Assembly (NCBI GenBank): GCA_025923035.1
Contig: JAICGQ010000001.1
Location: forward strand, 1 to 53,764
Reading direction: 5' to 3'
Origin: Pyrinomonadaceae bacterium
Lineage (GTDB): Bacteria > Acidobacteriota > Blastocatellia > Pyrinomonadales > Pyrinomonadaceae
Length of the DNA: 53,764 nucleotides
Shown in pieces: positions 9,934 through 28,653 of this stretch. A program made the position numbers and the translations under genes. Positions within the stretch are counted from its first letter, which is position 1. Each line of letters begins with the position of its first letter. Below the pieces are notes generated by a model. The model was not told the DNA's origin. It did not search any database and saw only the letters and a program-made list of their open reading frames with translations.

Positions 9934-10014
9934 CACATGTTGAATAAAAACATGAACGTTTCGTCTGCGCCTCAGCAGGGCCTCTGGCGGGAGATACATT
10001 TTTAACTAACCGGG

Positions 10015-11463
10015 ATGGCACAAAGTACAACCGCGACAGCTCCGGCAGCGTCCACCAAACCCACCAAACCTCGTTACGATCGATCGATCGTTGAAGGCCC
10101 GCTGCGTCCGGCGATTTGGAAGATCGCCTGGCCGTCGATGCTGACGAACGTCATCGGCGGCTTACAGGGAATCGTCGATCACGCGCTGGTGGGCCGTCTC
10201 GTCGGGTTTCAAGGAAACGCCGCGATTGGCGTGAGCTGGCAGATTTTCCTCGTCGTGATTGTGTTCATCTCGTCGTTGTTCACCGGAATGAGCGTACTCG
10301 TCGCACGCTTCGCCGGCGCGGGTGACGAAGAAAAAGTGAACCGCACCGTTTACCAGGCGTTCCTCACAGCGATCTTCATCTCGCTCGGAGTGATGGCGCC
10401 GATCGGTTACTTCGTCTCGCCGCTGTTACTCAAGCTGGTGAACGCAGCCCCTGAAGTACGCGCGGAAGCACTTCCCTTCCTTCGCATCATGTTCGTATTC
10501 AGCATCGGCATGATGATCTTCTTCATGCTCAGCGGTGCGCTTCGTTCGGCCGGCGACGCGCGCACGCCGATGATTCTCGGCATCTCCATGACGGTGCTGA
10601 ACCTCGTGCTGAACATCGTCCTCATCCGCGGCCTTGGTCCAATTCCCGCGTTTGGCACAACCGGTTCAGCGATGGGCACTTGTATCGCGTCCGGTCTCGT
10701 CGCGATTTATGCGCTGTCGAGGCTGTGGAGTGGCAAGTGGGTAGTTTCGATTCCACGCGGAGAGGGTTACGGGTTTGGTCCCGACTGGGCAATCATCAAG
10801 TCGATCTTCAAGTTTGGTCTGCCGACGGGGATTCAGGGAATCGCGATGAATATCGGCGGCGTGTTCATGCTCGCGTTCATCGGATCGCTCGCCCAAAGCG
10901 CGGCGGCACAGGCGGCGTTTACGGTCTCGTACACCGAACTGTTCTCGCTGATCACCTGGACGTCGGTTGGTTTGATGGGTGCAGCGGCGGCGGTCGCCGG
11001 GCAGAATCTTGGCGCGGGTAATCCGGATCGCGCTGACGCCGCGGTCCACCTCGCCGCACGATTCGGTTTCGCGGGCGCGGCGTTCGTCGGGTTGTTCTTC
11101 CTGTTACTTCCGCGTCAGTTACTGGCGATATTCGGTATGCACGACCCGACAGTCGTGGAGATTGGCGTACAGCTTCTACGCGTACTCAGTTTTTCCGGTC
11201 TCTTGATCTCGGTGGCACTCACGTTCACCGGCGGACTACAAGGTACGGGCGACACAAAGAGTCCACTCTATATTTCGATCATCTCGCAGATCGTCGTACC
11301 GCTCGGGTTGTGCTTTGTTATTAAACAGACCAGTACGCTCGATCCGATCGACATTTGGGCGGCCATACTCGCCGGTCACGCAACGCGCTGTGTGCTGAGT
11401 GTGGTTCGCTTCAAACAGGGTAAGTGGCGACACATCGCCGTGGACATCGGTACAAAGCGCTGA
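10015..11463 (+). CDS. MATE family efflux transporter
   Basis: 482 aa and about 12 hydrophobic segments, with an N-terminal IWKIAWPSMLTNVIGGLQGIVDHALVGRL pattern typical of MATE proteins. Confidence 0.85.
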   Translation: MAQSTTATAPAASTKPTKPRYDRSIVEGPLRPAIWKIAWPSMLTNVIGGLQGIVDHALVGRLVGFQGNAAIGVSWQIFLVVIVFISSLFTGMSVLVARFAGAGDEEKVNRTVYQAFLTAIFISLGVMAPIGYFVSPLLLKLVNAAPEVRAEALPFLRIMFVFSIGMMIFFMLSGALRSAGDARTPMILGISMTVLNLVLNIVLIRGLGPIPAFGTTGSAMGTCIASGLVAIYALSRLWSGKWVVSIPRGEGYGFGPDWAIIKSIFKFGLPTGIQGIAMNIGGVFMLAFIGSLAQSAAAQAAFTVSYTELFSLITWTSVGLMGAAAAVAGQNLGAGNPDRADAAVHLAARFGFAGAAFVGLFFLLLPRQLLAIFGMHDPTVVEIGVQLLRVLSFSGLLISVALTFTGGLQGTGDTKSPLYISIISQIVVPLGLCFVIKQTSTLDPIDIWAAILAGHATRCVLSVVRFKQGKWRHIAVDIGTKR

Positions 11464-12219
11464 TTATTTTGATTTACCCGCCAGACTCTTTTTCAATACC
11501 TGGACCAGATCGATCACTTTGCGATCCGTGTTCGCTTCGCTTTCGACCTCAACGACGTTGCTGCGTTTCTTCTCTTTCTTCTTCACCAGTTTCAGCAAAT
11601 CGTCAGTCTGCTTATCGGCGAGCTCTTTCGACGGTGAGAATTGCTTCTTCGATTTGTTCTTGATCAGCTTTTCAAACCTGGTAACTGTCGCTTTCGGAAC
11701 GTCTTTCTTCTTCGGTAAACCGATATCGGAGGGCGAGCGCAGTTCGTCGGCAAACCGCATCGTCTCGGCCCGCAGAATTCCGTTGTCAGAAAATATCGCC
11801 ACGAGATATTCCTTGCCGCGCATCACGAACGTCGCCACACCCGCCAGCTCGTTCTGGTCCATCGTCTCCGCGAGCAGCTTGTAAGCCTTTTGCGAACCTG
11901 CGGCTGGCGTCAGGAAGTAACCTCGTTCGAAATACAACGGCGGTATCGAATCCGCCGGCACGAACTGTTTGAGGTCGATGTCGCGCGTCTTTTCAGGTTG
12001 AAGTCGTTCGAGTTCCTCGTCCGTTACGACGACGTACTTGTTCTTGTCGACTTGATAACCACGCACAACCTCGTCGGCGTCGAGATCTTTCCCGGTCTTC
12101 TCAGCAAAATACTTGCGGGCCAGTGGCTGACCGTCCGGTCCCAGCATTCTCAAGGACGCGCGATTCGATCGCGCCGCGGGAAAGAGGCTCACCGGCACGC
12201 TTACGAGTCCGAACGTCAA
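11464..12219 (-). CDS. ku: Ku protein (NHEJ DNA-end-binding), paralog 2; true 5' end probably upstream of the listed TTG
   Basis: Ku core similarity (FGLVSVPVSLFPA..., YFERGYFLTP). The in-frame upstream sequence encodes the conserved Ku N-terminus RPFWSGT, but there is no ATG/GTG/TTG before the stop at 12310-12312. Confidence 0.85.
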   Translation of the reverse strand: MTFGLVSVPVSLFPAARSNRASLRMLGPDGQPLARKYFAEKTGKDLDADEVVRGYQVDKNKYVVVTDEELERLQPEKTRDIDLKQFVPADSIPPLYFERGYFLTPAAGSQKAYKLLAETMDQNELAGVATFVMRGKEYLVAIFSDNGILRAETMRFADELRSPSDIGLPKKKDVPKATVTRFEKLIKNKSKKQFSPSKELADKQTDDLLKLVKKKEKKRSNVVEVESEANTDRKVIDLVQVLKKSLAGKSK

Positions 12220-13906: not shown

Positions 13907-14710
13907 ATGAGCCAGGAAAATCGGTCGCGCCGGGGTCGACCACGCCACGAAACTACCTCACCACTCGGACGACTGATTCTGGCGGCGATGAAACTTCTCG
14001 GACTGAGTTACAAAGACATCGTCCGCGAAAGTGAGCGACTGGCCCACGTCAATAACAATCCCGACATGCGAATCGGTAAGTCGACTCTCGGCAACATCAT
14101 CAGCGGCAGTATTCATCAACCCGGCACAGCAAAACTCGACAGTCTCACAATCATCCTGAACCTTTCGCGTACGGAGACCGACGCGGCTATCGGTCTGCAA
14201 CCGCAGCGTCGTTTGCGAGAACAATTGAAAACTCTGCGTGCACGAACTCGCGAGATCAATCCCGACGCAGTGACGCGCCATCGCAGCATCATGGTGCCGA
14301 TCCTGCGCGACGATGCAAAGCTTTCGGAGTCACAGTTTCTCGAAGGCGCGTTGCAGGAATGGACCAGTGTCGAGGTGGAATATTTGAGTTCGCTGTACCC
14401 GCCTTATCTCGGCTATGTCGTTATAGGAGAACAGGATACGAACGCAGTACCGGTTGCTCCGCCGGGCAGTCGGGTGCTGGTGAACAAGCTCCTGACGAAG
14501 GTGCTGCCGCCGGAGAACGTCAGCTTTCACGAGCGCGAGTTGTTTTATGTGCTAACGCCGCGTGGACCAACCTGCGTGTATCTCGAGTACGCGCCCGGTG
14601 ACAAGATTGTGCTGGTCCCGCATCCGCTGTCCGGCAATCTGCGCGAAGAGTTTGCGGCCAACGACGTGACCATCGTGGGCCAGGTGGTCGGGGTGCTCTA
14701 TCCGGAATGA
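13907..14710 (+). CDS. XRE-family HTH regulator with C-terminal LexA/S24-like (apparently non-catalytic) domain
   Basis: N-terminal HTH-like segment (LGLSYKDIVRESERLAHV...STLGNIISG). The C-terminal beta-rich segment ends ...VTIVGQVVGVLYPE, like CI/LexA C-terminal domains. No G-D-S-M nucleophile motif was seen. Confidence 0.6.
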   Translation: MSQENRSRRGRPRHETTSPLGRLILAAMKLLGLSYKDIVRESERLAHVNNNPDMRIGKSTLGNIISGSIHQPGTAKLDSLTIILNLSRTETDAAIGLQPQRRLREQLKTLRARTREINPDAVTRHRSIMVPILRDDAKLSESQFLEGALQEWTSVEVEYLSSLYPPYLGYVVIGEQDTNAVPVAPPGSRVLVNKLLTKVLPPENVSFHERELFYVLTPRGPTCVYLEYAPGDKIVLVPHPLSGNLREEFAANDVTIVGQVVGVLYPE

Positions 14711-14997: not shown

Positions 14998-15765
14998 GTG
15001 GCGGCCGGTAGTACACTGAAGTCCCTTCGCAACAAGTGCAATATCACTGTGCGACAGGTCGAACAAGCAAGCGTCAGGATCGCCGACGCTAAAGGCGACA
15101 AGCGCTTCCGCATCTCGAATGGCTGGTTGGCCCAACTCGAAAACGGCAAATCCGAACCAAGCATCTGCAAACTTTTCACGCTAAGCGTGATCTATCACGC
15201 AAACTTTCACGACCTCGCGCGGCTTTACAAGGTCGACATCGATGAGATCGAGAGCTACGAGTCGATTGCCAATCCCGACGTCACGCAGTTGCGTCCCGAG
15301 ACGCGCGACGAAAGAGTGTTCAATGTCGCGCGCGGGTCAACGGGTCTCGTGCCGCAGCTCACAACGCCGGAAGTGAAAGAACGGTCTCACATTCGGCATG
15401 CCTACGTAGGCCTGACGGATTACATGATGTACCCATTGATCAGGCCGGGTGCGCTGGTGGAGATCGATACCACTCAGAACAGCATCCGCAACGCCGCTGC
15501 CTGGCATAACGAATTCGACCGCCCGATATTCTTCATTGAATTGCACGAGGGATACGCGTGCGGCTGGTGCGAGCTGCAGGGCAATCAACTGCTGATCCTG
15601 CCACATCACTCGTCGCCATCGAGTGTTCGCCGTTTCATTTATCCGCGAGAAGCGGAGATCTTCGGCCGTGTTGTCGGCTACACCACTCGCTGTGTCGATC
15701 CGGAACCGCACGTGCTGGAACGTGCTTCGGATTCCAAGCAGCGGTTGCGATCGTCAAGCCGGTGA
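14998..15765 (+). CDS. XRE-family HTH regulator with C-terminal degenerate S24-like domain
   Basis: HTH segment (ITVRQVEQASVRIA...ISNGWLAQLENGKSEP). The C-terminal VGLTDYMMYPLIRPGALVEID...IFGRVVGY resembles the LexA GDSM region with Tyr in place of the nucleophilic Ser. GTG start. Confidence 0.65.
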   Translation: MAAGSTLKSLRNKCNITVRQVEQASVRIADAKGDKRFRISNGWLAQLENGKSEPSICKLFTLSVIYHANFHDLARLYKVDIDEIESYESIANPDVTQLRPETRDERVFNVARGSTGLVPQLTTPEVKERSHIRHAYVGLTDYMMYPLIRPGALVEIDTTQNSIRNAAAWHNEFDRPIFFIELHEGYACGWCELQGNQLLILPHHSSPSSVRRFIYPREAEIFGRVVGYTTRCVDPEPHVLERASDSKQRLRSSSR

Positions 15766-15795: not shown

Positions 15796-15815
15796 CTGCT
15801 TGGAATACCAAGCAG
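15796..15815. promoter_or_regulatory. operator-like palindrome, copy 1 (CTGCTTGGAATACCAAGCAG)
   Basis: Perfect 8-bp inverted repeat with a 4-bp spacer, about 70 nt upstream of the exporter ATG. Near-identical copies lie at 17547 and 17621. Confidence 0.55.
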
Positions 15816-15886
15816 ATTCACGTTTTTGTGTAGCGTGTGCCGAAATCTTCGTAGAGTCGCCGAGGTTCATAACCGGGACGAAACTG

Positions 15887-17542
15887 ATGCGACCGCAGCC
15901 GTATCGCGAACTCTCGTGGCTTGCGTCTGAAGTCAGACCATTTTTGCGTCTTCACGCCGGCAGTTACGTGTGCATTGTTGCCGGCTCGTTTCTCGTTCTT
16001 CTCGATCCACTGATCATCCGCCTCCTGATCGACGACGTAATTCCGCAGCGGCGCTTTAGTTGGCTGCCACTCGTCGCCGTCGCGCTGTTTCTTACCTACA
16101 TGGGCCGTCTTGGACTCGATGCTCTCGCGGGACTGCTGAACGTCTGCGCAGTGCAGAAGATGTCGTTTCACGCGCGCTTGAAACTGCTGCGTCATGTGCA
16201 ACGACTCTCGGCCAATTACCACGACAACACACCGGTGGGCGACACATTGCATCGTTTGCAAATCGACGTCGATCAGGCAGCGACCCTCACGGGAGAGGTG
16301 ATCCCAACGGTGTTACGAATGTTGACAATGTTCGTGGTCGTACTATCGGCAATGCTCGTTCTGAATTATCGTCTCGCGCTTGTCGTGATACCGCTGGTTC
16401 CGGTCTTCATTCTGGTCCGGCGGCGGTTTCACCATCAGCTACGGTCTGCTTCCGATTCCGTGCAGCGGGAATCGAGCAAAGTGATCGGGTTTCTCGACGA
16501 ACATCTGGCCGCGATTCTTCAGATCCAACTGCTTTCGTGCGAACAAAGAGAGGCGCGACGGTTTGCTCGTCTTTCGGCGGCCGCAGTTCGCGCGCAGGTC
16601 AAACGACGCGGCACGGAGATGTTCTTCAGCGTGGTGCTCTACTTGATTATCGTTATGGGCATCGCGAGTGTGCTGTGTTACGGCGGTTACCAGGTGATGG
16701 TGGGGACGTTAACCGCGGGAAGTCTGGTGGCGTTTTATGGCTATACGCTTCAATTGTTCTCGCCCTTGTATGGCGCGATCGAGATCTATTCGAAGTTGCA
16801 GCGCGCGGCAGCGAGTGTGCGGCGTCTTATTGAGATTGCCGATGCTGAAGTCGCCGTGAATGATAAACCGGCAGCCGTCGTTCTGCGACCGGGCACGCCT
16901 GCCGCTGTCGAGTTGAAGAATGTTTGTTTCGGTTACCACAGCGACCGACCCGTGCTGAATGCTTTGAGCATGCAGGTGAATCGCGGGGAACGAGTCGCGG
17001 TCGCCGGCAGCAGTGGCATTGGCAAAAGCACAATCGGACGGTTGGTCGCGCGACTGTACGACGCTCAGGATGGGACTGTTTTCGTCGCCGGCAGTGACAT
17101 TCGCGACATCAAACTCAAGAGCCTGCGATCGTCAGTAATTCTCGTGCCTCAGGATCCCGTTTTGTTCGATTTGACCCTGCGTGAGAATTTGCTCTATGGA
17201 AACGCAACCGCCACGGTCGACGAGCTTGAACGCGTGAGCGAGGTGGCGCAGTTGAGACAGGTGATCGACCGTCTGCCGAAAGGTTGGGACGAACCACTTG
17301 GTCCGCGCGGCAACCGCCTCTCCGGCGGCGAACGTCAACGAGTAGCGCTCGCACGCGCGCTACTGCAACGCCCGAGCGTCTTAATTCTTGACGAGTGTAC
17401 CTCCGCACTCGACGCGCTGACCGAAACACGTTTACTCGCGAGTCTGAACGACTTCCTGCACGACGTCACAACCATCATGATCTCGCATCGGCCGCTGCCG
17501 ACTAGTTGGGCCGACCGCGTCGTAAACATCGAACTCCAATAG
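15887..17542 (+). CDS. ABC transporter, fused permease/ATPase exporter (lasso-peptide D-type candidate)
   Basis: N-terminal 6-TM-type domain. Walker A GSSGIGKST, signature LSGGERQ, Walker B LILDE. ATG 15887 is preferred because the listed TTG at 15800 lies inside the palindrome. Confidence 0.85.
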   Translation: MRPQPYRELSWLASEVRPFLRLHAGSYVCIVAGSFLVLLDPLIIRLLIDDVIPQRRFSWLPLVAVALFLTYMGRLGLDALAGLLNVCAVQKMSFHARLKLLRHVQRLSANYHDNTPVGDTLHRLQIDVDQAATLTGEVIPTVLRMLTMFVVVLSAMLVLNYRLALVVIPLVPVFILVRRRFHHQLRSASDSVQRESSKVIGFLDEHLAAILQIQLLSCEQREARRFARLSAAAVRAQVKRRGTEMFFSVVLYLIIVMGIASVLCYGGYQVMVGTLTAGSLVAFYGYTLQLFSPLYGAIEIYSKLQRAAASVRRLIEIADAEVAVNDKPAAVVLRPGTPAAVELKNVCFGYHSDRPVLNALSMQVNRGERVAVAGSSGIGKSTIGRLVARLYDAQDGTVFVAGSDIRDIKLKSLRSSVILVPQDPVLFDLTLRENLLYGNATATVDELERVSEVAQLRQVIDRLPKGWDEPLGPRGNRLSGGERQRVALARALLQRPSVLILDECTSALDALTETRLLASLNDFLHDVTTIMISHRPLPTSWADRVVNIELQ

Positions 17543-17786: not shown

Positions 17787-19484
17787 ATGAGTGCACTTGC
17801 GGGGATACTCAATTTTGATCGAGCGCCTGGCGAATGTCACGCACTTGTTTGGGACGGGCGGTTGGATAATCGCGCCGAGTTGATTTCGCAACTTGGAAAT
17901 CGCGTCGAGCAGTCGTCAACCGACGTCGACATTGTGATGGCGTCGTACTTGAACTGGGGCATAGATTTTCTCCCTCATTTGATCGGCGACTTCGCCCTTT
18001 CCTTGTGGGACCAAACCACACGGACGTTGATCCTGGCGCGCGACGCATTCGGAACACGACCGATCTACTACCGCGCGAATCCGCACGGCATCACGTGGTC
18101 GTCGGATCTCGCTTCTCTGCTGGACGTTGAGAAACTCGAAATCGATCGTGAATACGTCGCTTCCTATCTGAACGGCGCTCCCGATCTGGAGCGGACGGCT
18201 TACAAGAACATCCACTCTGTGCGACCCGGATCAGCGTTGATCATTCGCGACCATCGAATCGAGAAGCACGAGTTCTGGCGGCCCCATGTCAAACGAGAGG
18301 TTCGTTACCGTTCCGATTCAGAATACGAAGAACACTTTTGCGATCTGTTTCGCGATGCGGTTCGTTGTCGGCTGCGATCGGATGGTCCTGTTTGGGCGGA
18401 GCTGAGTGGCGGTCTCGACTCGTCGGCGATCGTGTGCATAGCCGATCAGATCGCCGGATCGTCGCAGATCGAAACCGTTTCTTACGTCTACGACAATTCT
18501 CGCGCCTCAGACGAGCGGCGTTTCATTGCAGCAGTCGAAGCACAGAGAGGCCGCGCGGGACATCATTTTCACGAGGACGATTCCGTAGGACGGTTTGTGA
18601 ATTTAGACGTCGCCTCGATCGTTAGACCAAACCCCACTTACCGCTTTACCGCACGACACGATTGGGTGCGACGGCAGATGCAGGAAACCGGCAGTAGCGT
18701 GTTGCTCTCCGGAATCGGCGGCGACAACTTACTGTGGAGCGGCGCTGAAACCTCGCCGGAACTCGCGGACCTGCTGGTCCAGCTAAAGCTGCCGTCGCTA
18801 CATCGCGCGGTCAAGCTGTGGAGCCGTGCAACGCGAGATTCGTACGCCGCGACGTTGTGGCGCGGCGCGGTGTTGCCCTGTGTGAAACCCTCACTGCCAG
18901 GCACATCCGCGCTAATCGACCGCGATTTTGCGAAACAGATGCAGCTTCAGGAGCGCAAAACACAGGCGATTGACGCGCAGGGTTTCAAGCTGCCGAGCGC
19001 ACGTGCGCAGGCTTGCTTGTTGGCGTCGGTGGTTCGTGCGGTTGCGAGTTGCTACTACCTGGATCGCGTTGCCACTGAGTATCGCTTCCCGTTCCTGCAC
19101 CGGCCGCTCGTCGAGTTCCTCCTTGCCGTTCCGATCGAACAGAAGCTACGGCCCGGCGAAAACCGATCGCTGCAGCGACGTGCGTTGAGGCATGTGTTGC
19201 CGGCGGCGATCCTGAGGCGGCAAAGCAAGCGGTGTTCGACCGAAGCGCTGTGTCGCACGCTTGCGGCCAACTGGCGCGAAGTCGAGCCGTTGTTCAAAGC
19301 GCCGCTGGTGTGCGAGTACGGCTTCGTCGATCCAAAAGCGTTTGCCGACGCCGCGAGGTTGATCCGGCACGGCTTGCAGAATCCCGGCGGAGAACTGGTG
19401 GGCGTACTTTCGGTCGAGCTTTGGTTACGAGGGCTCGAGTCGAACAGAGCATCGTCGTTGCGAGAGGTGAAATTGGCAAGCTGA
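17787..19484 (+). CDS. lasso peptide cyclase candidate 1 (asparagine synthetase B-like, C-type)
   Basis: AsnB-like fold lacking the N-terminal catalytic Cys (starts MSALAGIL). PP-loop SGGLDSS present. Located directly upstream of the B protein. ATG 17787 preferred over the listed 17709. Confidence 0.85.
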   Translation: MSALAGILNFDRAPGECHALVWDGRLDNRAELISQLGNRVEQSSTDVDIVMASYLNWGIDFLPHLIGDFALSLWDQTTRTLILARDAFGTRPIYYRANPHGITWSSDLASLLDVEKLEIDREYVASYLNGAPDLERTAYKNIHSVRPGSALIIRDHRIEKHEFWRPHVKREVRYRSDSEYEEHFCDLFRDAVRCRLRSDGPVWAELSGGLDSSAIVCIADQIAGSSQIETVSYVYDNSRASDERRFIAAVEAQRGRAGHHFHEDDSVGRFVNLDVASIVRPNPTYRFTARHDWVRRQMQETGSSVLLSGIGGDNLLWSGAETSPELADLLVQLKLPSLHRAVKLWSRATRDSYAATLWRGAVLPCVKPSLPGTSALIDRDFAKQMQLQERKTQAIDAQGFKLPSARAQACLLASVVRAVASCYYLDRVATEYRFPFLHRPLVEFLLAVPIEQKLRPGENRSLQRRALRHVLPAAILRRQSKRCSTEALCRTLAANWREVEPLFKAPLVCEYGFVDPKAFADAARLIRHGLQNPGGELVGVLSVELWLRGLESNRASSLREVKLAS

Positions 19485-19500
19485 GAGAAGGAGCACGTCA

Positions 19501-20271
19501 ATGACCAATAGTGATGGACCGTCTTACCGTGTCGCCTCCGATGTTTGTTTCAGCACAGACGCCGAGGGAACGATCATTCTCGACGTCCAGGGCGGGAAGT
19601 TTCACAGCTTGATTCAGGGCGGGAGCAAGGCGTGGTCCATTCTCACTGCACACCGCCAGGGAATCACGCAGAAAGAACTCGTCGATCAGTTGATGGTCCA
19701 TGACGAAGAGTGCGCGCAGGAGCCACGCGACAAAGTCGATTCAGCCATCCAGCGCATCCTGCAACAACTCATGCGCGACGGATTGCTCACGACGGACCAG
19801 TCATACAATCGTTCAACCCTGGAAACTCTCAAGTGTCGCTTGTGTGAAGCCGGCGCGACTGCCGTTCGCCACACGAGCAACACGTTGATCCGTTTTCGGA
19901 GTGTGCCGGCGGCCGCGTTCATTGAATTTGTGTTCTACGAGGTGATCCGCAGATTCGGCGGCTTCTATGCGCGGCACAAGATCATTCGTCAGTGGCCCAT
20001 CGCGAACGCGCGCCGGAACGACGACATTGACCTGCCTGGACTGTGCGAGGCGGTGCACACGGCGGCCGTCTGGTATCCAAAACAAACATTGTGTTTGCAG
20101 AAGGCTTCGGTGACGACGAGCCTGTTGCGCCAGCACGGCTTTCAGGCCGACATGAAGATCGGTGTGCGCAAACAACCGTTTCATGCTCACGCCTGGGTCG
20201 AAGTTGATGGCCAGGTTGTGGGCGACCATCAAAACGTCCGCAAGTATTTCAAAGAAATTGCAAGCTGGTAA
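19501..20271 (+). CDS. fused lasso peptide B1-B2 protein (PqqD-like RRE + transglutaminase-like leader peptidase)
   Basis: The N-terminus resembles PqqD/RRE (GTIILDVQGGKFHSLIQGGSKAWSIL...ITQKELVDQL). The C-terminus has Cys/His/Asp peptidase elements (TLCLQKA...HAHAWVEVDGQVVGD). AAGGAG RBS upstream. Confidence 0.85.
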   Translation: MTNSDGPSYRVASDVCFSTDAEGTIILDVQGGKFHSLIQGGSKAWSILTAHRQGITQKELVDQLMVHDEECAQEPRDKVDSAIQRILQQLMRDGLLTTDQSYNRSTLETLKCRLCEAGATAVRHTSNTLIRFRSVPAAAFIEFVFYEVIRRFGGFYARHKIIRQWPIANARRNDDIDLPGLCEAVHTAAVWYPKQTLCLQKASVTTSLLRQHGFQADMKIGVRKQPFHAHAWVEVDGQVVGDHQNVRKYFKEIASW

Positions 20272-20299
20272 GGCAAAAGCACGAAGCACGAGGATCGCC

Positions 20300-22234
20300 A
20301 TGAGTGGGATCGGAACAATATTCAGCTTTGACGACGCACCTGTCAGTAAAGAACGGTTGCAGTTACTGAGCGAGAGCCTGTCGGCTCGTGGGTCGGACGG
20401 CATCTTCTCGTTTTGCGCGGCAACGGTCGGCATGTGTTTCAGCGCCCTGCACACTACGCGCGAATCGTGGTCCGAGAAGCAGCCGTTGATCACCGCTGAC
20501 GGGAACGTGCTCGTGATGGACGGAATCCTGTTCAATCGCGAGGAGCTGATTGATTTGCTGCGCCTCGCGCCCGACGACGATCGGACGGATGCGGGCATTG
20601 TGAGTGCGGGACTGCGAAAGCATGGCGCCGGCTTCCTGGCGAAAATCGCCGGCGACTTCGCGATCGTTCACTACGATCGCAGATCTAACAGTCTGCTGCT
20701 CGCGCGAGATCCATTCGGGATGCGGCAGTTGTATTACCACCAGCAGCGAGACGAGCTGTTGGTCGCGTCAGATCTCGCCGCACTAATCAAAGTTGCCGGC
20801 AGGCCTGCCGAATTGGACCAGGAATACATTTGCACTTACCTGGTGACGGTTCCCGAGGTCGGAAGAACACCATATCGCGGCTTCTATCCCGTACAACCCG
20901 GACACCTGATCCTGGCGCGTAATCGACAACTCACCACGAGCCGGTTCTGGCACCCTGAGTCGATCAAGGAGATTGTTTACCAAACAGACAGTGAGTACGA
21001 GGAACACTGTCGCCACCTGATGACGGAGGGAGTGCGTCAGTGTCTGCGGACCGACGATCGTCCGATCTGGTCAACGTTGAGTGGCGGTCTCGACTCTAGC
21101 ACTGTCGTTTGTCTCGCCCATAAATTGATTCGGAGCGGTAAGGCGGAGACCAGGGAGCTGCAAAGCGTTTCGATTGTGTTTGACGAAGCGCGGTCCGCCG
21201 ACGAGCGACGATTCATTCGCGCGGTAGAAGAGCAGGTGGGCCACGCCGGGATTCACCTGAGCGATGATTCCTACTGGCTGGCGATCCCGTCGCCTGAGAG
21301 CGCGTTTCTGCGCGTGCCGACGCCGCTGCTTTGCGTTCCGGGACGGCAGGATCGAATCCGGGAACTAATGATCGAACAAGGCGCGCGCGTGTTGCTCAAC
21401 GGGTTGGGAGGCGACCAGATCTTCTGGAACATGCCGATACCGTCGCCGCAGATGTCAACCCAGCTACTGAACCTCGAGTTCACCGCGCTGCATCAAGCCA
21501 CGAAAGCGTGGAGCCGCGCGTTCAAACAACCTTACCTGCACACGCTATGGAAGATGTCGTTCCTGCCATTCATGCCGGACGTGGTAAAGGCTTTGTTTCA
21601 GCCCAAACTGTTGATTCCGGAGTGGCTCGATCGAGACTTTGCGCGCCGGATGCGGTTACGCGAGCGAACGCTCGAACCTCGCGATCCATACGGGTTCGAC
21701 GGTCCCGGCAAGCAAATCCAATCCGGTGTTTTCCAGCAGCTCATTCGCATGATCGCGAGTGGAGAATTCGCGGAACGAGACGGCATCGAATGGAGAGCGC
21801 CACTGCTGTACCGTCCTCTCGTCGAATTCGCTTTCGCAATCCCGTTCGAACAGAAGTTGCGGCCCGGCGAGATCCGGTCGCTGATGCGGAGAGCATTGCG
21901 GAACGACTTGCCTGAAAGAGTCCTCCATCGCCCGGGCAAGGGAGAGATCAGCGAAGCGATGCACAAAGGATTGCTGAGGCAAAGCAGCACAATCGATCAA
22001 CTGCTTGCCGATCCACTGGTTTGTTCACTTGGCTATGTAGATCGAGAACGACTGCGGTCAGCCGTCAGCCTGGCAAAACACGGCGCGAAACTGAATGTTG
22101 GCGCACTACTCAACACAATATCGCTGGAGATCTGGCTGCAGTCGTTTCGACACCACGGTGGGATCCTGAACTCGACCAGCAACGCAAACGCGGGTTCGAT
22201 CTTGCCGCTGTTGTCACAACCTGCAAACGCCTGA
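20300..22234 (+). CDS. lasso peptide cyclase candidate 2 (asparagine synthetase B-like, C-type)
   Basis: Second AsnB-like ORF (starts MSGIGTIF, no Cys2) with PP-loop SGGLDSS. Colinear with cyclase 1 along its length. ATG 20300 has a GAGGA RBS and is preferred over the listed 20162. Confidence 0.85.
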   Translation: MSGIGTIFSFDDAPVSKERLQLLSESLSARGSDGIFSFCAATVGMCFSALHTTRESWSEKQPLITADGNVLVMDGILFNREELIDLLRLAPDDDRTDAGIVSAGLRKHGAGFLAKIAGDFAIVHYDRRSNSLLLARDPFGMRQLYYHQQRDELLVASDLAALIKVAGRPAELDQEYICTYLVTVPEVGRTPYRGFYPVQPGHLILARNRQLTTSRFWHPESIKEIVYQTDSEYEEHCRHLMTEGVRQCLRTDDRPIWSTLSGGLDSSTVVCLAHKLIRSGKAETRELQSVSIVFDEARSADERRFIRAVEEQVGHAGIHLSDDSYWLAIPSPESAFLRVPTPLLCVPGRQDRIRELMIEQGARVLLNGLGGDQIFWNMPIPSPQMSTQLLNLEFTALHQATKAWSRAFKQPYLHTLWKMSFLPFMPDVVKALFQPKLLIPEWLDRDFARRMRLRERTLEPRDPYGFDGPGKQIQSGVFQQLIRMIASGEFAERDGIEWRAPLLYRPLVEFAFAIPFEQKLRPGEIRSLMRRALRNDLPERVLHRPGKGEISEAMHKGLLRQSSTIDQLLADPLVCSLGYVDRERLRSAVSLAKHGAKLNVGALLNTISLEIWLQSFRHHGGILNSTSNANAGSILPLLSQPANA

Positions 22235-22264: not shown

Positions 22265-22399
22265 ATGACTCACGAAGCATTTGAAGCGGTCGACCTCGGT
22301 CACGCGGAAGAATTGATCGAAATCGGCATGCATGAAACGGACGAAGAAATGTGGCTGAAGTTTACGCCGGGAGCGACGCCTTACGTCGAGTTTGAGTAG
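22265..22399 (+). CDS. lasso peptide precursor candidate A1 (44 aa): MTHEAFEAVDLGHAEELIEIGMHETDEEMWLKFTPGATPYVEFE
   Basis: Hand-translated. AAAGGAGG RBS 7 nt upstream. Paralogous to the next small ORF. The leader-like V-x-LG-x-A-x6-G pattern resembles proteobacterial lasso leaders. Putative core has Gly1 and Glu7/Glu8. Confidence 0.7.
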   Translation: MTHEAFEAVDLGHAEELIEIGMHETDEEMWLKFTPGATPYVEFE

Positions 22400-22470: not shown

Positions 22471-22608
22471 ATGACTTACGAATCTTTCGAAGTGGTGGAG
22501 TTGGGCAAGGCCGAGGTCGAAATCGAAATCGGCAACTTGAACGCGCCCGAGGAAGTCGATCGAAAATTCCTCGATTCCGTCGCGCCATACGTTGAATTCG
22601 ACGAGTAA
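22471..22608 (+). CDS. lasso peptide precursor candidate A2 (45 aa): MTYESFEVVELGKAEVEIEIGNLNAPEEVDRKFLDSVAPYVEFDE
   Basis: An internal ATG of the listed 60-aa ORF is preceded by an AAAGGAG RBS. Aligns with A1 without gaps through the predicted core, conserving G1, E7, E8, K12, F13 and P19-Y-V-E-F23. Confidence 0.7.
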   Translation: MTYESFEVVELGKAEVEIEIGNLNAPEEVDRKFLDSVAPYVEFDE

Positions 22609-22626: not shown

Positions 22627-22652
22627 GCAGGAGACAGTCATCTGTCTCCTGC
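22627..22652. terminator. perfect 11-bp stem / 4-nt loop hairpin between convergent operons
   Basis: GCAGGAGACAG-TCAT-CTGTCTCCTGC lies between the A2 stop (22608) and the peptidase stop (22679). No clear U-tract follows. Confidence 0.55.
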
Positions 22653-22678: not shown

Positions 22679-25297
22679 TCACTTCGTTTTTGCTGACTGG
22701 TTTGGTTGCCGGTTCAGCAGAAACTCATCAAACCAGTTGAATATGTGTTCGTACATGTCGAGCACATTTCCCGGAGATTCGATGGAGTGGCCTTCGGCGA
22801 GATAACGGACGAGCTTTGCGCGTTTTCCCAGGCGATTCAACGCAACAAAGAACTGTTCGGCCTCGGAAAGCGGATGAGCGTCGAGCTCTCCGTGGATCAT
22901 TAGCAGTGGCGTCGTGACTTTATCGACGTGAACGTATGGACTGTTTCGCAAGTACCGATCGAGGTCTTTCCATGGAGGCACACCCATACGCATTTGGTGC
23001 GCTTCCACAAGAAACGGCGCCCACAGCGGATTGGGTACATCGCTAAAGCGATACCGGATGTCAAGTCGGCCATAAGCACTCAGCAGATCGTTGACGCCGG
23101 CTAATGCTACAGCAGCTTTGAAGCGTCCGGTCTGCGTTACCAGGGCGTAAACGCTATAACCACCGTAGCTAAAGCCCATGAGACCGGTGCGATCGGGATC
23201 GGCAATCCCCATTTCCACAACCTTCTCGACGGCTGGTTTTACACCCTTATCAAGTTCCAGCATGGGATCACTTTGCACTCCCATTGGTGCAAGAGGAACG
23301 CTCGGATAGAGCACGGCGTAACCATGGCCCGCGAGAACCAATGGATCCGGGTAATCGCGCGACCTCCATTTATACGGATTCGCCCAATCGCCCGTCGGCG
23401 GTACACTGCCGCCGTAAACAGAAACTACTAACGGGTATCGATGTCCGGCCGTGTAACCATAGGGCAGGAGTAGAGCTCCGGAAAGCTGTTTACCCTCCGC
23501 TGTTTGATATTGAATGGTGCGATATTGAGGCTTTGCGATGGCGTCGAGTTGCCGGTTCAAAGAAACCAATGTGATCGACTTGGGACCATGTGCGCGCGCG
23601 TCGAGTAAACGAAGCTCTGTGTTCTCGCTTTCGTAAGCGAGCAATCGGCGTTTAGGTGAATAGCCCGCGAAGACGCTTCCGGCCGGCATCGTACCGAGCT
23701 TAACGGGTGCACCGCCGATAAGGTCCAACCGTAGAAGTTCAGAGCCGCCGGCACTTGACTGCGTAATGACGAGATGATCGGTAGGTCGATGGGCATCGGC
23801 AGGACGCGGCGAAACGATCGATGCTGCATCACTCAGGGCTTTTGCTGTTCGCGCTGCCGGATCTATGGCCCACACGCGTCCGGTGCTCGCACCGGCCATC
23901 AGATTTGAGTTTTGAATCTTGAAGAGTGACCGCGGAGACTGGGCCATCTCGCCCGTTAGCTTGTGATAAGAACCGGCGGAAGAGACGATCCACCAGTCGC
24001 GCTTCGCGGTCTCGCGGCTGTTGTCCAGAGCAAAGCCTCGCACGTCCTTAAGAGAGACTTCCGCGTCCAGGCTGGATCTGTCTCCCGCGTAGCCGTAAAC
24101 CAGAAGGTCTCCGCTGGCGGACCATTGGACGTCCTCCGCGGTCAGGAACTGCTTATCGCCTGGGTCGTATTTGACTGCCGCCACTGCTTCCGGTTTTTCC
24201 TGATCTCCGCGCACGTTGAAAACGGCGGGCGCGACGTCGTTGACTGACGTTCCGATGAAAGCGAAGGTAGAACCCGACGGCGCCCATCGCATTGACGTTG
24301 GTATCACTGCCAACGAGAAAGTCGCCGGTCGCACGTTCGGCACCCATGCCGGGACCGTATTTGTTTTAGTCAGATTTGCGACGCCGAGTCTTAACCTCGT
24401 GATGTCTTCGGTGCGTGGCGGTCTGTCCGGATCTACTGTGCTCGGATAATCCGTTGCGAGAATTGCGGCTGATTTATGGTCCGGCGAGATTGAAACGATG
24501 CGTTGCGAGAGACGCGTCTCGATAAGCGGGATACGCGTTACGATCCGCGTCTTGTTCGTGGCCAGGTCAATCAAACTCAGGCTCACATTCTTCTGTTGAG
24601 CTGATGGGTGCTCCACTTGCTCCGTATCGAGAATGCTGGCAGTGACACCGCGGCCGCGCTTCACATCAGCCATCGCTTTAGCGGCGATGCGGAACGTTCG
24701 TTCACTCTCGTCCATGGCGAGAGAGCGTATGCCCGGAGGCAGGACTCCCAGTAGCAGTTGATTCGATCCGAGCCACGCGATCGTCGACGTTTTGTTTTCG
24801 AGCGTCTCGATCGAGAGGCCAAGATCCACGCCATCGGTCGTACAGGCGCGCAGGCGTTGAGTGCTGAGATCGTAAACGTACGCGCGCACGTTATCGCCGC
24901 GCGTGGAGACCATAGCCAGCCGCTTGCCATCAGGTGACCATAGAGGGTTCCAGTAACCCGCGTGAACTGCTTCGCCACGCGTAACATTGATTAGTGTCTT
25001 GCCGTCAGTTGATGCGAGCCAAACATCGCTGCGTTCCAGTCCTCCCAGATATCCGGGTTCATACGACTCCCCCACCTTCTTGGGTCTCTGGATAACGATG
25101 GCCGCCCACATGCCATCGGGCGAGAACGCTGTTGCTTTGATGGCGTGCACCGTGAGCAGATCCTGAGGAACCATTGCGCGGCCGGGCGCGTTGGGTTGTG
25201 ATCTCGCGACATCACCTGGCCTGATGAGAACCAGTGCGACACAAAGAACCGGCAGCAGCAGATGATGGCGCGCGCGCGCGCTTGGTTTGCGGTACAT
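22679..25297 (-). CDS. S9 (prolyl oligopeptidase family) serine peptidase with N-terminal beta-propeller; lasso isopeptidase-like candidate
   Basis: Signal peptide, then a long TolB/WD40-like propeller region. The C-terminal alpha/beta hydrolase domain has GFSYGG (GxSxGG), HGELDAH and EGHSI triad elements. Convergent with the lasso operon. Confidence 0.8.
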   Translation of the reverse strand: MYRKPSARARHHLLLPVLCVALVLIRPGDVARSQPNAPGRAMVPQDLLTVHAIKATAFSPDGMWAAIVIQRPKKVGESYEPGYLGGLERSDVWLASTDGKTLINVTRGEAVHAGYWNPLWSPDGKRLAMVSTRGDNVRAYVYDLSTQRLRACTTDGVDLGLSIETLENKTSTIAWLGSNQLLLGVLPPGIRSLAMDESERTFRIAAKAMADVKRGRGVTASILDTEQVEHPSAQQKNVSLSLIDLATNKTRIVTRIPLIETRLSQRIVSISPDHKSAAILATDYPSTVDPDRPPRTEDITRLRLGVANLTKTNTVPAWVPNVRPATFSLAVIPTSMRWAPSGSTFAFIGTSVNDVAPAVFNVRGDQEKPEAVAAVKYDPGDKQFLTAEDVQWSASGDLLVYGYAGDRSSLDAEVSLKDVRGFALDNSRETAKRDWWIVSSAGSYHKLTGEMAQSPRSLFKIQNSNLMAGASTGRVWAIDPAARTAKALSDAASIVSPRPADAHRPTDHLVITQSSAGGSELLRLDLIGGAPVKLGTMPAGSVFAGYSPKRRLLAYESENTELRLLDARAHGPKSITLVSLNRQLDAIAKPQYRTIQYQTAEGKQLSGALLLPYGYTAGHRYPLVVSVYGGSVPPTGDWANPYKWRSRDYPDPLVLAGHGYAVLYPSVPLAPMGVQSDPMLELDKGVKPAVEKVVEMGIADPDRTGLMGFSYGGYSVYALVTQTGRFKAAVALAGVNDLLSAYGRLDIRYRFSDVPNPLWAPFLVEAHQMRMGVPPWKDLDRYLRNSPYVHVDKVTTPLLMIHGELDAHPLSEAEQFFVALNRLGKRAKLVRYLAEGHSIESPGNVLDMYEHIFNWFDEFLLNRQPNQSAKTK

Positions 25298-25311: not shown

Positions 25312-28300
25312 TCAGAACATGAGCTTCAAAGCGAACTGCATCGAGCGTGGTCCACCAATCTGATACAGCGGATTGAATCCGCCGGTCGCGCCGCCGCTTC
25401 CAAGACTGCGCCCAAACATGGTTTGAGAGAACCCGAATGCCGTGTTCAAACTATTGCCTGAATAAACCGTGCCGACGGGATCCGCGAAGTTTGGGTGATT
25501 AAAAATATTGAATGCTTCGGTACGAAACTGAAGCCGCAGCCGATCTTTCAAACGAAAGTCGCGGCGGAAGGCGAGATCGAGTTGGTAGACCGGGAACCCT
25601 CTCAGGAAATTGCGCGGAAGATTACCTTGTCGATTCTCCACGGGCGCCAGAAACGGACCAACTTGCGGACGTGGGTTGCCGGGGATCGTTACCGTCTGAT
25701 TGTTAAATCGCATTCCACCCGGAGCTTTCGGATCTTCGAGGTAGAGCGGTATTCCTTCGATAAGATCCGGCCGAAAGCTGAAAGTACCAAACCCGATATT
25801 GCGCGAGTAGACAATGTTTACGGGACCAGCAGATCGGCCGGTGAAGATCGTGTCGACCGACCAATCCTTCAACAGTTCACGGCCGACGCCTCCGAAAGCT
25901 GGAGCGGGAATGTTGTACGTAAGGGCGGCGGAAAACTGGTGCCGGATGTCGAAGTCCGATGGTCCTCTATCGATCTGCGGATCGAGCTTGTCACTTGGCG
26001 TCAGGAAGGCTGCATCACTTGATACGTTGTCGAGCGACTCGGAAAACGTGTATGAGACCAGCGCCTGGAAACCTCGAGAAAGTCGACGACGAAACTGAAG
26101 CTGCAGTGAGTTGTAATCCGACGTAGCCGCATTCCTGCTGACGTCCACTATCTGGAACTTCGGGTTCGGATTGAAGTAACGCTCCATCCGCAGTAGCTCC
26201 CGTCCTTTGGCGGCGACGTAAGCCACGCTGGCTACCTGACTGGCCCCGAGAGACTGATCTACCGTGACGTTCCATTGATAAGTGCGTGGCAACTTCAGAT
26301 GCGGATCAGCGACAAAGATAGTGCTGGTAAACGGTTGATCGAGACTGAACGGTGGAGGCGTGGCCGCCGCTGCATTCAGCGGGTATGGCGTTAATGACGA
26401 GCCGCGCGAGCGGGAATAAGGAAAACTGGTGAACGCGTTGCCCAGGAAACCCGAGCCGAGATCGTAGAAGATACCCCAGCCGCCGCGAATGACGGTCGCT
26501 GAGTTTGTGTGCTCTCTCAGGTGATAGGCAATGCCGATGCGTGGTCCAAAGTTTCCATACGTCGTCTCATAGAGCGGCGTGCCGAGAGGTGCGATCGCAA
26601 ACGTCGCCGGATTATCCAAACCCGTACCGCTTATAAGCTCCTTCTCTCCTTTCGGCGCGGGGTTAATTTCCCATCGCACGCCGTACGTCAGCGTTAATTG
26701 TCGCGACAGCTTCCATGTGTCCTGGAAGTAGGTGGAGATGTTGTGAAAGATGGCTGAGTTGGGATCGGCGGCGGTTGCACTTGCAGCCAACGTGATTCCG
26801 GAAGCAGCCGTACCCGGAGTAGCAGCCCCGTTCGCGTCCAGCACTGACAAGAACGTGATGGTTTGACCATAGACTCGACTTCCCCAGTAAGGTGACATCC
26901 TGCGGTAATCGCCGCCGAACTTGAACTGATGATTGCCCTTACTCATCGAAGCGTTACCAACCACGTTATGTTGGCGCTGCAAGTTGTCGTTGAGTCTGCC
27001 GATCGTGAGCACGGGGTTGCGGCCGCCAAGCGCGACAAGAAAGAACAACAAACTATCGTTCGAAGAGAAAGGCGCCGGAAATAAAGCACTCTCGGGCGGC
27101 GGCGTTGCTCCGCCCAGACCGTCAATCAGAAACGCGCTGGTGCCACGGTTTCTGCTGTAGTTGTATCGAAAGTCCGCGGTCACCGCCGGTGAAGCAATGA
27201 ATGTCACGCCTGACGTCAGCGTAAGCGTCTTGCTGCCGACGACGTTGACGTTATTCAACGGTGAGAGATTCGCGCCGCGTTGCTCCAATTCAGAAGGTGC
27301 ATAGTTGAACCTGCCGAAGGCAGTCACTTTGCTGCTCAACACGTGGTCCATTCGCAGGCTGGTTGCGTCGAGCCGCGATGGATCGGAATAGCTTGCAACA
27401 AAGTCCGCCAGACCATTCACGCGGTCAGGCCCGGTCGGAAGCGGGTAGCCGTTCAGGATCGGTTTGACTCCGGCTGAAGCTACTTGCCGCGCCGCTCGCG
27501 ACGGCACATCCGTCGCCGCGAAAAACGGTTGGCGGAGACGCAATGCTTCATACGAGAAAAAGAAGAAGGTGCGGTCGTGCCCGTCGTACCAAACCGGTCG
27601 GGTGCCTTCGCCCAAGCCCGGCAGTAGCAATGGACCACCAAACACACCGCCATAATTGTTCTGCCGCAACGCCGCCTTTCTGAGGCCGGGATTCGCATTT
27701 ACAAACCAGTCAGTGGCATCGAGCACGTCATTGCGCAGGTACTCGAACAGCGTTCCGTTGTAAGAGTTGGTACCGGACCGGCTCGCAATCGTGACTTGCG
27801 CCCCCGGAGTTCGGCCAAACTCAGGCGCAAAGGTAGAAGTCAGAATCTTGAACTCCTGCACTGCATCAACGGACACCAGGTTGCTCGTGCCGCCCGAGAC
27901 GCTGAAACCCGGTAACGAACCCGTACTGCTTTGACCGATGTTGCCGGCGGGAATGATGCCGATGTTTGCGCTTACGCCATCGACCGTAAAGTAGTTTGCG
28001 TTGGCACGTTGACCGTTGACGCTGAACTGCCCCTGGTCAGTCACGGACGTCTTCGTCAACACAACTCCCGGCGAGAGCGTGATCAGCGACTGAAAACTCC
28101 GGCCATTCAGCGGCAGGTTTCCGACAAACTGCTGGTCCACTATCGTGCCGACCGCGGGCGATTGATCGAGTAGCGGCGGCGTGGACAGTACGTCCACTGA
28201 TGAGCTGCTCAACGAACCGACTTTAAGAGCAATGTTGATCTTCACCTGGTCGTTGACGTTTAGAACGACGTCCGGAACTTCCGCAGTCGTGAATCCCTCG

Positions 28301-28653
28301 CGCTCGGCCTTGACGGTGTAAATGCCCGGCGGCAGTAACGGCACGACAAACTCGCCTTCTCGATTTGTGATCGCGGATCGTTGGAAGCCCTGCGCGATGC
28401 TGATCACGGCGACGTTGGCGCCCGGCACGACCGCGTCGTTTTGATCCGTAACCGTACCGCTAAGCGTAGCGGTCGCGCCTTGTCCATAAACAGTGATCGA
28501 TACCGATTGAAATGCGACGAAGAGGAGGAGAACTAAAACGCCGGTGAGCAGACGCAGAGCGGAGCATGGCGAGGTAAGTACCGGCGTTTCGTCATTTGTT
28601 TCGTGATAACGAGGACAGAAGGCAGACGAGCAGACTTCTGGGGTTCTGGGCAT
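25312..28653 (-). CDS. TonB-dependent receptor with carboxypeptidase-regulatory-like N-terminal domain
   Basis: LSGTVTDQNDAVVPGANVAV...YTVKAEREGF N-domain and a 1113-aa barrel. The C-terminus is ...MQFALKLMF. The gene lies 14 nt upstream of the S9 peptidase start. Confidence 0.9.
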   Translation of the reverse strand: MPRTPEVCSSAFCPRYHETNDETPVLTSPCSALRLLTGVLVLLLFVAFQSVSITVYGQGATATLSGTVTDQNDAVVPGANVAVISIAQGFQRSAITNREGEFVVPLLPPGIYTVKAEREGFTTAEVPDVVLNVNDQVKINIALKVGSLSSSSVDVLSTPPLLDQSPAVGTIVDQQFVGNLPLNGRSFQSLITLSPGVVLTKTSVTDQGQFSVNGQRANANYFTVDGVSANIGIIPAGNIGQSSTGSLPGFSVSGGTSNLVSVDAVQEFKILTSTFAPEFGRTPGAQVTIASRSGTNSYNGTLFEYLRNDVLDATDWFVNANPGLRKAALRQNNYGGVFGGPLLLPGLGEGTRPVWYDGHDRTFFFFSYEALRLRQPFFAATDVPSRAARQVASAGVKPILNGYPLPTGPDRVNGLADFVASYSDPSRLDATSLRMDHVLSSKVTAFGRFNYAPSELEQRGANLSPLNNVNVVGSKTLTLTSGVTFIASPAVTADFRYNYSRNRGTSAFLIDGLGGATPPPESALFPAPFSSNDSLLFFLVALGGRNPVLTIGRLNDNLQRQHNVVGNASMSKGNHQFKFGGDYRRMSPYWGSRVYGQTITFLSVLDANGAATPGTAASGITLAASATAADPNSAIFHNISTYFQDTWKLSRQLTLTYGVRWEINPAPKGEKELISGTGLDNPATFAIAPLGTPLYETTYGNFGPRIGIAYHLREHTNSATVIRGGWGIFYDLGSGFLGNAFTSFPYSRSRGSSLTPYPLNAAAATPPPFSLDQPFTSTIFVADPHLKLPRTYQWNVTVDQSLGASQVASVAYVAAKGRELLRMERYFNPNPKFQIVDVSRNAATSDYNSLQLQFRRRLSRGFQALVSYTFSESLDNVSSDAAFLTPSDKLDPQIDRGPSDFDIRHQFSAALTYNIPAPAFGGVGRELLKDWSVDTIFTGRSAGPVNIVYSRNIGFGTFSFRPDLIEGIPLYLEDPKAPGGMRFNNQTVTIPGNPRPQVGPFLAPVENRQGNLPRNFLRGFPVYQLDLAFRRDFRLKDRLRLQFRTEAFNIFNHPNFADPVGTVYSGNSLNTAFGFSQTMFGRSLGSGGATGGFNPLYQIGGPRSMQFALKLMF

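Follow-up and report, generated by a model that had tools for sequence, protein, structure and literature searches.

Lasso peptide biosynthesis is taught as the work of one precursor set, one B protein and one C protein, and the locus described here raises the question of why an operon would keep two C proteins. The window, by which we mean the whole stretch of 53,764 nucleotides analysed from contig JAICGQ010000001.1 of a Pyrinomonadaceae bacterium, carries on its forward strand the gene order REG1-REG2-ABC-C1-B-C2-A1-A2. Two AsnB-like cyclase genes, C1 (17787..19484) and C2 (20300..22234), flank a single B gene (19501..20271), and two precursor genes, A1 (22265..22399) and A2 (22471..22608), close the series. 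The genes of an S9 peptidase and a TonB-dependent receptor follow, convergent on the opposite strand, and no further lasso genes, including any second B gene, were found elsewhere in the window. By its gene content, this is a lasso peptide operon of a Pyrinomonadaceae-like acidobacterium, with the topology of the product being predicted. The original prediction offered two explanations for the pair of cyclases: either each of them serves one precursor, or one forms the N-terminal ring and the other a second isopeptide bond, for example between Lys12 and Glu22. We favour, with a probability of about 0.4, a reading in which two self-sufficient cyclases would work in parallel with one shared B protein, C2 probably on the ancestral A2 type of precursor and C1 on the A1 type. 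This reading builds on the gene content, the conservation, the purifying selection and the presence of both cyclase types on their own in other clusters, all of which are observed, and from them we infer the chemistry, the parallel action and the pairing of cyclases with precursors.

The comparisons below draw on 168 loci, which came from contig look-ups and from scanning collections of genomes and metagenomes; almost all of them belong to Pyrinomonadaceae and other Acidobacteriota. Two cyclases are present in 16 of 78 genome loci and in at least 13 of 80 metagenome loci (about 29 of 158, roughly a fifth). The C1-B-C2 arrangement of the window is shared by 12 loci (the window, L001, L002, L004, L005, L036 and L159-L164), whereas in more than 20 others the order is B-C-C. 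The upstream series of exonuclease, MatE, Ku, Ku, REG and cluster is common to the window, L160, L161, L163 and L165, which indicates that the C1-B-C2 arrangement has been inherited vertically.

Both cyclases look catalytically complete. C1 (565 amino acids, aa; canonical subtype) and C2 (644 aa; divergent subtype) each contain a GATase_7 domain and an Asn_synthase domain (2.3e-36 and 9.6e-36, respectively), and the SGGLDSS PP-loop is found at residues 207-213 of C1 and 261-267 of C2; with Asn_synthase matches at E about 1e-36 and this loop, both have the hallmarks of an ATP-dependent AsnB-like macrolactam synthetase. Among NCBIfam models, both score best against the lasso isopeptide cyclase model NF033535, with 301 bits for C1 and 304.5 bits for C2, under the 525-bit cut-off of a model that is narrowly defined and of cyanobacterial type. 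Family matches and coordinates thus bear out two AsnB-like cyclases with intact PP-loops around a single B, as first proposed. Every C-domain position conserved in at least 93% of 125 single cyclases is kept in both proteins, including SGGxDSS, GxxGD and the conserved Lys, and C1 retains 40 of the 41 positions conserved to this degree. The ratio of non-synonymous to synonymous substitution rates (dN/dS) is 0.14-0.20 for C1 and 0.13-0.18 for C2, in both domains, so that the two genes are under purifying selection.

The description of the cyclases as two full-length proteins of 566 and 644 aa holds for C2 only, since C1, at 565 aa, has lost an internal stretch of 51 residues of its N-terminal domain which is found in most orthologues. 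The deletion site lies at residues 16-18 of C1 (window 17787-17900), and a 565-aa protein 99% identical to C1 (P0003) is on record in public assemblies. This loss would be the natural starting point for an explanation by redundancy, according to which one cyclase, and most probably C1 with its internal deletion, is dispensable or being lost; other deletions fall within the same stretch in the close relatives P0004, P0005, P0006 and P0045, and in L004 the C1 gene is broken into two open reading frames (ORFs). However, L011, L012, L087 and L094 have sole cyclases that lack this stretch too, which implies that it is dispensable for function, and dN/dS stays at 0.15-0.20 even among the deletion-bearing copies (window against L159, and L036 against L160). 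The truncated C1 still gives a confident AlphaFold2 model (mean pLDDT, the predicted local distance difference test score, of 87.8) with the AsnB / beta-lactam synthetase fold, and C1 is retained in every C1-B-C2 locus sampled; neither sequence nor fold search found a solved lasso cyclase structure. In view of the same loss in sole cyclases, the low dN/dS and the confident model, we reject the deletion as a sign of decay or of dependence on C2, and we consider redundancy very unlikely. From the alignments, the missing part of the vestigial glutaminase domain seems to be dispensable and prone to deletion.

Two observations belong beside this one. Both single- and two-cyclase clusters have lost, on several occasions and with differing boundaries, 40-52 residues of the cyclase from the part that lies between its N-terminus and the WDGRLDNR motif. 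The split C1 of L004 (9797-11675) consists of ORFs at 9797-10309 and 10389-11675 of a metagenome-assembled genome, and may be an assembly error, the alternative being a real disruption.

If both cyclases are sound, the next point is where they come from. C1 and C2 share 40% identity over 548 residues, and in our cyclase tree, which is a neighbour-joining tree only, C1 clusters with the single cyclases of L006, L007 and L014, while C2 falls in a separate clade. Of the positions conserved to at least 85% in all other cyclases, the C2 clade deviates at 14 and the C1 clade at only one; among the deviations of C2 are the change of WDGRLDNR to MDGILFNR, the loss of four Trp and a change of R to C. 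Most of them, including the whole N-domain motif, recur in the proteins P0183-P0185, which are 49-50% identical to C2 and represent the only cyclase of L166 and L168. We therefore reject a new function acquired upon duplication as the source of the 14 deviations, and C2 is placed, by sequence, in a stand-alone cyclase subtype. C1 and C2 come from different cyclase subfamilies, rather than being recent duplicates, and since both subfamilies occur as the sole cyclase of related clusters, each type can serve a cluster alone. The simplest history would be an ancestral B-C2-precursor cluster with a later gain of the canonical cyclase C1 upstream of B. Lacking several Trp and the WDGRLDNR motif, which are near-invariant elsewhere, the divergent C2 subtype also offers a natural experiment on the role of the cyclase N-domain.

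The precursors provide the second line of evidence. A1 (44 aa, MTHEAFEAVDLGHAEELIEI / GMHETDEEMWLKFTPGATPYVEFE) and A2 (45 aa, MTYESFEVVELGKAEVEIEI / GNLNAPEEVDRKFLDSVAPYVEFDE) are preceded by the Shine-Dalgarno-like sequences GGAGGA and AAGGAG, respectively, 5' of their ATG. A homology search with the 44-aa A1 returned just two near-identical relatives, P0001 and P0002. Within the C1-B-C2 family, A1-type orthologues are present in 12 of 12 loci, and A2-type orthologues are found as well: all 12 loci have at least two precursors, 11 have recognisable A1 and A2 types, and L164 has one typical and one divergent precursor. The A1 type is characterized by the leader MTHEAFE..ELGQAE.LIE- and the tail YVEFE, the A2 type by the leader MTYESFE..ELGKAE..IE- and the tail YVEFDE.

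Across 25 precursors from the 12 independent loci, E8, K12, Y20 and E22 are invariant (25/25), followed by E7 and V21 (24/25) and by P19 and F23 (23/25), with fixed spacing EE-x3-K-x7-YVEF; positions 1-6, 9-10 and 14-17 vary freely. The shared core positions are thus not due to chance. The set of residues reported as identical in the two window cores (G1, E7, E8, K12, F13, P19, Y20, V21, E22 and F23) is exact in the numbering used there, with the qualification that G1 is not a conserved position of the family. Only 12 of the 25 cores begin with G, the others having V (3), A (2), or F, I, C or T (1 each), and four more are one residue shorter in the alignment. A1 and A2 carry E7/E8 as potential ring acceptors, within the Asp/Glu range of core positions 7-9; in the A1 of L162, position 7 is Asn. 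In a leader alignment with other acidobacterial precursors, a conserved Ile/Val lies six residues past the LG motif, at the putative -2 position, and the first core residue might be the conserved hydrophobic one that precedes the assumed start.

In L166, a cluster with only a C2-type cyclase, the precursors (e.g. MTYESLEIVELGHAEDLIQS/GQEPIVEESGVLKTFPALAIYAEDAE) show G1 and E7/E8, followed by a loop Lys, which is Arg in the third copy, and by a Y-x-E tail. A2 resembles them in its MTYES leader start and in the length of its tail (Y plus five residues) and, because of this match with a cluster holding only a C2-type cyclase, it looks like the ancestral precursor type. Among acidobacterial precursors from single-cyclase clusters, an acidic tail and a conserved Lys are common features.

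According to the reading we favour, the B protein would bind and cut both leaders. Each cyclase would then adenylate the side chain of an invariant Glu (E8, or else E7), which would be attacked by the new N-terminal amine, to give a single ring of 7 to 9 residues around a threaded tail, that is, the ordinary lasso reaction. The two cyclases would act in parallel and not in sequence, most likely with C2 on the ancestral A2 type and the later-recruited C1 on the A1 type, and Lys12 and the PYVEF tail would serve a later step common to both peptides, such as export, uptake through the TonB-dependent receptor or processing by the S9 peptidase, instead of a second crosslink. In its favour, two cyclases accompany two precursor types in the C1-B-C2 loci. 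The earlier proposal of one cyclase per precursor survives in part: it fits the two precursor types and the two subfamilies, each of which is sole cyclase elsewhere, but it finds no pairing signal. Distance correlations did not link A1 with C1 or A2 with C2, the partial r being 0.30 for C1-A1, 0.50 for C1-A2, 0.22 for C2-A1 and -0.01 for C2-A2.

This null result is one of several points that weigh against our reading. A single cyclase normally handles several precursors, as the original prediction had stated: L006 has three precursors and L103 has five, and the felipeptin precursors FilA1/A2 share the one cyclase FilC (PMC7689547). It is also not obvious why a second cyclase should be needed, since ring region and invariant residues are the same in A1 and A2. 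An invariant Lys12 goes beyond what a role purely in recognition would demand; it is never Arg in the 25 peptides, even though a single nucleotide change would turn Lys into Arg and relatives with one cyclase do have Arg at the corresponding site (R13 in L166, and likewise in the L168 cores). Finally, at least nine B-C-C loci have two cyclases and a single precursor, so that their cyclases cannot be divided by precursor, and either both act on the same peptide or one of them is redundant. Across the superfamily, the number of precursors does not correlate with the number of cyclases.

These single-precursor B-C-C loci also speak for an explanation in which both cyclases of the window work on the same precursors, be it as a mixed complex that makes one ring, or by closing the ring at E7 in one case and at E8 in the other, to give two ring sizes. 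The cyclase genes of several B-C-C loci (L018, L022, L025, L060 and L105) overlap by 1 or 4 bases, which suggests coupled translation; nearly all members of the family have two acidic residues side by side where the ring is closed, and A1 and A2 are alike in the ring region. Nevertheless, loci with a single cyclase show such a pair just as often, the A1 of L162 has one acceptor only, because of its Asn at position 7, and a mixed complex is not required where each subtype works alone elsewhere. In the window itself the two cyclase genes are separated by B and are not translationally coupled. On balance, we regard action on the same precursors as unlikely.

The strict conservation of Lys12 bears on the second macrolactam. 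Here, one cyclase would close the N-terminal ring and the other would adenylate a second carboxylate for attack by the Lys12 amine, the candidates being E22, the spare E7, the acidic position 11 or the C-terminus; two AsnB-type enzymes would in this way yield a bicyclic lasso. The invariance of K12, E8 and E22, with E7 in 24 of 25 cores, and the fixed EE-x3-K-x7-Y-V-E-F spacing among otherwise variable positions are what this would predict, and so is a Lys that is never exchanged for Arg here, while the two interchange in the single-cyclase L166 (R13) and L168 cores. Both cyclases have the full adenylation machinery and are under selection, the single-precursor loci with two cyclases (at least nine) would fit as well, and natural lasso peptides with a second isopeptide bond exist (PMC11451635, PMC13178200). 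However, L166 has the Lys and the Y-x-E tail with a single, C2-type cyclase, which means that the residues taken for a crosslink are older than the second cyclase. Either subtype of cyclase also serves as the only one in other clusters, and no residue change is tied to the two-cyclase state, C1 having one deviation and C2 mostly those it has in common with stand-alone enzymes. The K12-E22 bond has thereby lost its comparative support, and we hold a second macrolactam to be quite unlikely.

The known bicyclic lasso peptides point in the same direction. The view that a bicyclic lasso topology was undescribed is outdated: in the class V peptides lariocidin B and gelatinamin A, which belong to the very topology class that had been proposed for this operon, with a second isopeptide bond through a Lys side chain, Lys2 in the ring is joined to the C-terminal carboxylate after loss of a Gly (PMC11451635, PMC13178200). 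This second bond is formed outside the cell by a clostripain-like transpeptidase, LrcF or GelP (PMC11451635, PMC13178200). A Pfam scan of ten cluster proteins of the window found no clostripain-type (C11) peptidase, the only peptidases being the B2 domain and the S9 enzyme. The window cores have neither Lys2 nor a C-terminal Gly; their C-terminus is acidic and their sole Lys is at position 12, which sets them apart from class V. With no clostripain-like gene and no Lys2, any second bond here would need an ATP-dependent cyclase.

In most respects the operon resembles class II lasso clusters, among which we take the caulosegnins and astexins to be multi-precursor, one-cyclase examples. As in these, there are leader-core precursors, several per operon, with an acidic ring acceptor at positions 7-9, a B protein composed of a putative PqqD-like part and a transglutaminase-like peptidase, and an AsnB-like cyclase with a PP-loop. 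Contrary to class II, the window has two cyclases of different subfamilies around a single B, core position 1 is variable, and the leader appears to have Ile/Val or Glu, instead of Thr, at -2. A model for one enzyme per precursor comes from the two-component lanthipeptides haloduracin and lichenicidin, where two LanM synthetases modify two precursors very unlike each other. The likeness lies in two modifying enzymes and two conserved precursor types per operon; however, these belong to another class of peptides that are made by ribosomes and altered after translation (RiPPs), with another chemistry, and A1 and A2 share most of their invariant residues.

In our literature searches, no paper came up that deals with lasso clusters with two cyclases or with characterised lasso peptides of Acidobacteriota. 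Here, two distinct cyclases are kept, under selection, in a conserved family of loci from uncultured soil Acidobacteriota, and any of the live outcomes would be new information on the use of these enzymes, be it an enzyme-precursor pairing, two ring sizes from one precursor, a mixed complex or a second crosslink. Were the second bond to be true, it would mean a bicyclic lasso by a route other than the transpeptidase of lariocidin B and gelatinamin A, and the same logic might extend to the many two-cyclase, single-precursor clusters of Acidobacteriota.

The remaining genes follow a widespread layout, which consists of regulators, an optional ABC exporter, B, C and precursors, and then the convergent S9 peptidase and TonB-dependent receptor. 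The B protein (256 aa, Transglut_core3, PF13471, 7e-26) is a fusion of a putative PqqD-like leader recognition part with a transglutaminase-like leader peptidase. It scores 80.3 bits against the lasso B2 model NF033537, well over the cut-off of 33 bits, as expected of a leader peptidase, and its N-terminal 100 residues match PqqD weakly (PF05402, E 0.0047, 17.7 against a 23.4-bit cut-off; NF033536, E 0.002). Upstream of the cyclases, the ATP-binding cassette (ABC) exporter (15800..17542, + strand, 580 aa) is a fused permease and ATPase (ABC_membrane 5.9e-40, ABC_tran 2.3e-30). It is present in the window, L159, L162 and L163, and is missing between REG2 and C1 in L001, L002, L004, L036, L160, L161 and L165, where the remaining cluster is unchanged.

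REG1 (13907..14710, + strand, 267 aa) is a conserved upstream gene with no Pfam or other family match, and most related loci have an orthologue at the equivalent position (e.g. L002, L004, L006 and L007, 81-88% identity). REG2 (14998..15765, + strand, 255 aa) is a putative helix-turn-helix (HTH) regulator with weak matches to HTH_31/HTH_19 (E about 0.005, under the Pfam cut-offs), and is kept immediately 5' of the biosynthetic genes in related loci. The two form a pair of neighbours of about 260 aa upstream of lasso clusters across Pyrinomonadaceae, with up to 88% identity; neither reached the threshold of a curated family in our family scans, and they may be a dedicated regulator pair.

Downstream, a perfect 11-bp inverted repeat (GCAGGAGACAG tcat CTGTCTCCTGC, 22627..22652) can be read from the sequence between the convergent A2 and S9 genes. 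It forms a terminator-like hairpin with no T-run and is unlisted by the consensus terminator scan, the signal of the consensus promoter and terminator scans being at or under background. The secreted S9-family serine peptidase (22679..25297, - strand, 872 aa, Peptidase_S9 3.8e-27) adjoins the cluster in most related loci and is a candidate lasso peptide isopeptidase or degrading enzyme. It scores 104.2 bits against the AtxE2 isopeptidase model NF033523, short of the cut-off of 400, and matches it over the C-terminal catalytic part only, while the AtxE2 structures (5txc/5txe) match it at E 3e-7, ranked below generic S9 peptidases. The TonB-dependent outer-membrane receptor (25312..28653, - strand, 1113 aa, OMP_b-brl_4 5.8e-140) has a CarboxypepD_reg domain (7.5e-21) and is kept next to the S9 peptidase across Acidobacteriota loci.

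We take the proteobacterial astexin-2/3 clusters to have the AtxE2 isopeptidase, a TonB-dependent receptor and FecI/FecR as regulators. As in those clusters, an S9-family peptidase and a TonB-dependent receptor adjoin the biosynthetic genes, here family-wide, which by analogy suggests uptake and breakdown of the peptide. However, the S9 peptidase of the window is some 170 residues longer than AtxE2 (and reaches 104 against 400 bits), an ABC exporter is present in the window as well, and the regulators are of the HTH type rather than FecI/FecR.

Some related clusters hold features of their own. In L010 (7789-9819), as in L013, L054 and L057, a 676-aa ORF lies between a split B2 and the cyclase; it is of prolyl-oligopeptidase type by eye, had no match to the S9 protein of the window in a BLAST screen, and occurs in single-cyclase clusters with cores that start G-x-K. 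The idea of a hidden second cyclase in this 2-kb gap was thus discarded, as the ORF reads as a prolyl oligopeptidase, and it could be an extra processing enzyme. In the single C2-type cyclase cluster of L168, a 125-aa ORF (5602-5979) encodes a full leader and then three tandem units, each with an MGDAEDLVE-like leader fragment and a near-identical core (AGQPNGSIEADGTRTEALFPLYSE), and looks like a multi-core lasso precursor; two-core look-alikes are found in L014 (7909-8169) and L167 (3513-3752). Many precursors of L008-L158, from clusters with one or two cyclases, show a leader end VI-x-G, then x-K and an acidic pair 5-7 residues further on, the conserved Lys being the second or third residue of the core; it is Lys2 that serves as nucleophile for the second ring of lariocidin-type peptides. 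Lastly, two Thermoanaerobaculia loci, L027 (2582-2731) and L051 (11718-11867), encode a Cys-rich core of 24 residues (GGEGCCTDCCGCKKGCCDGDLSLE), with 9 Cys within a stretch of 14 residues.

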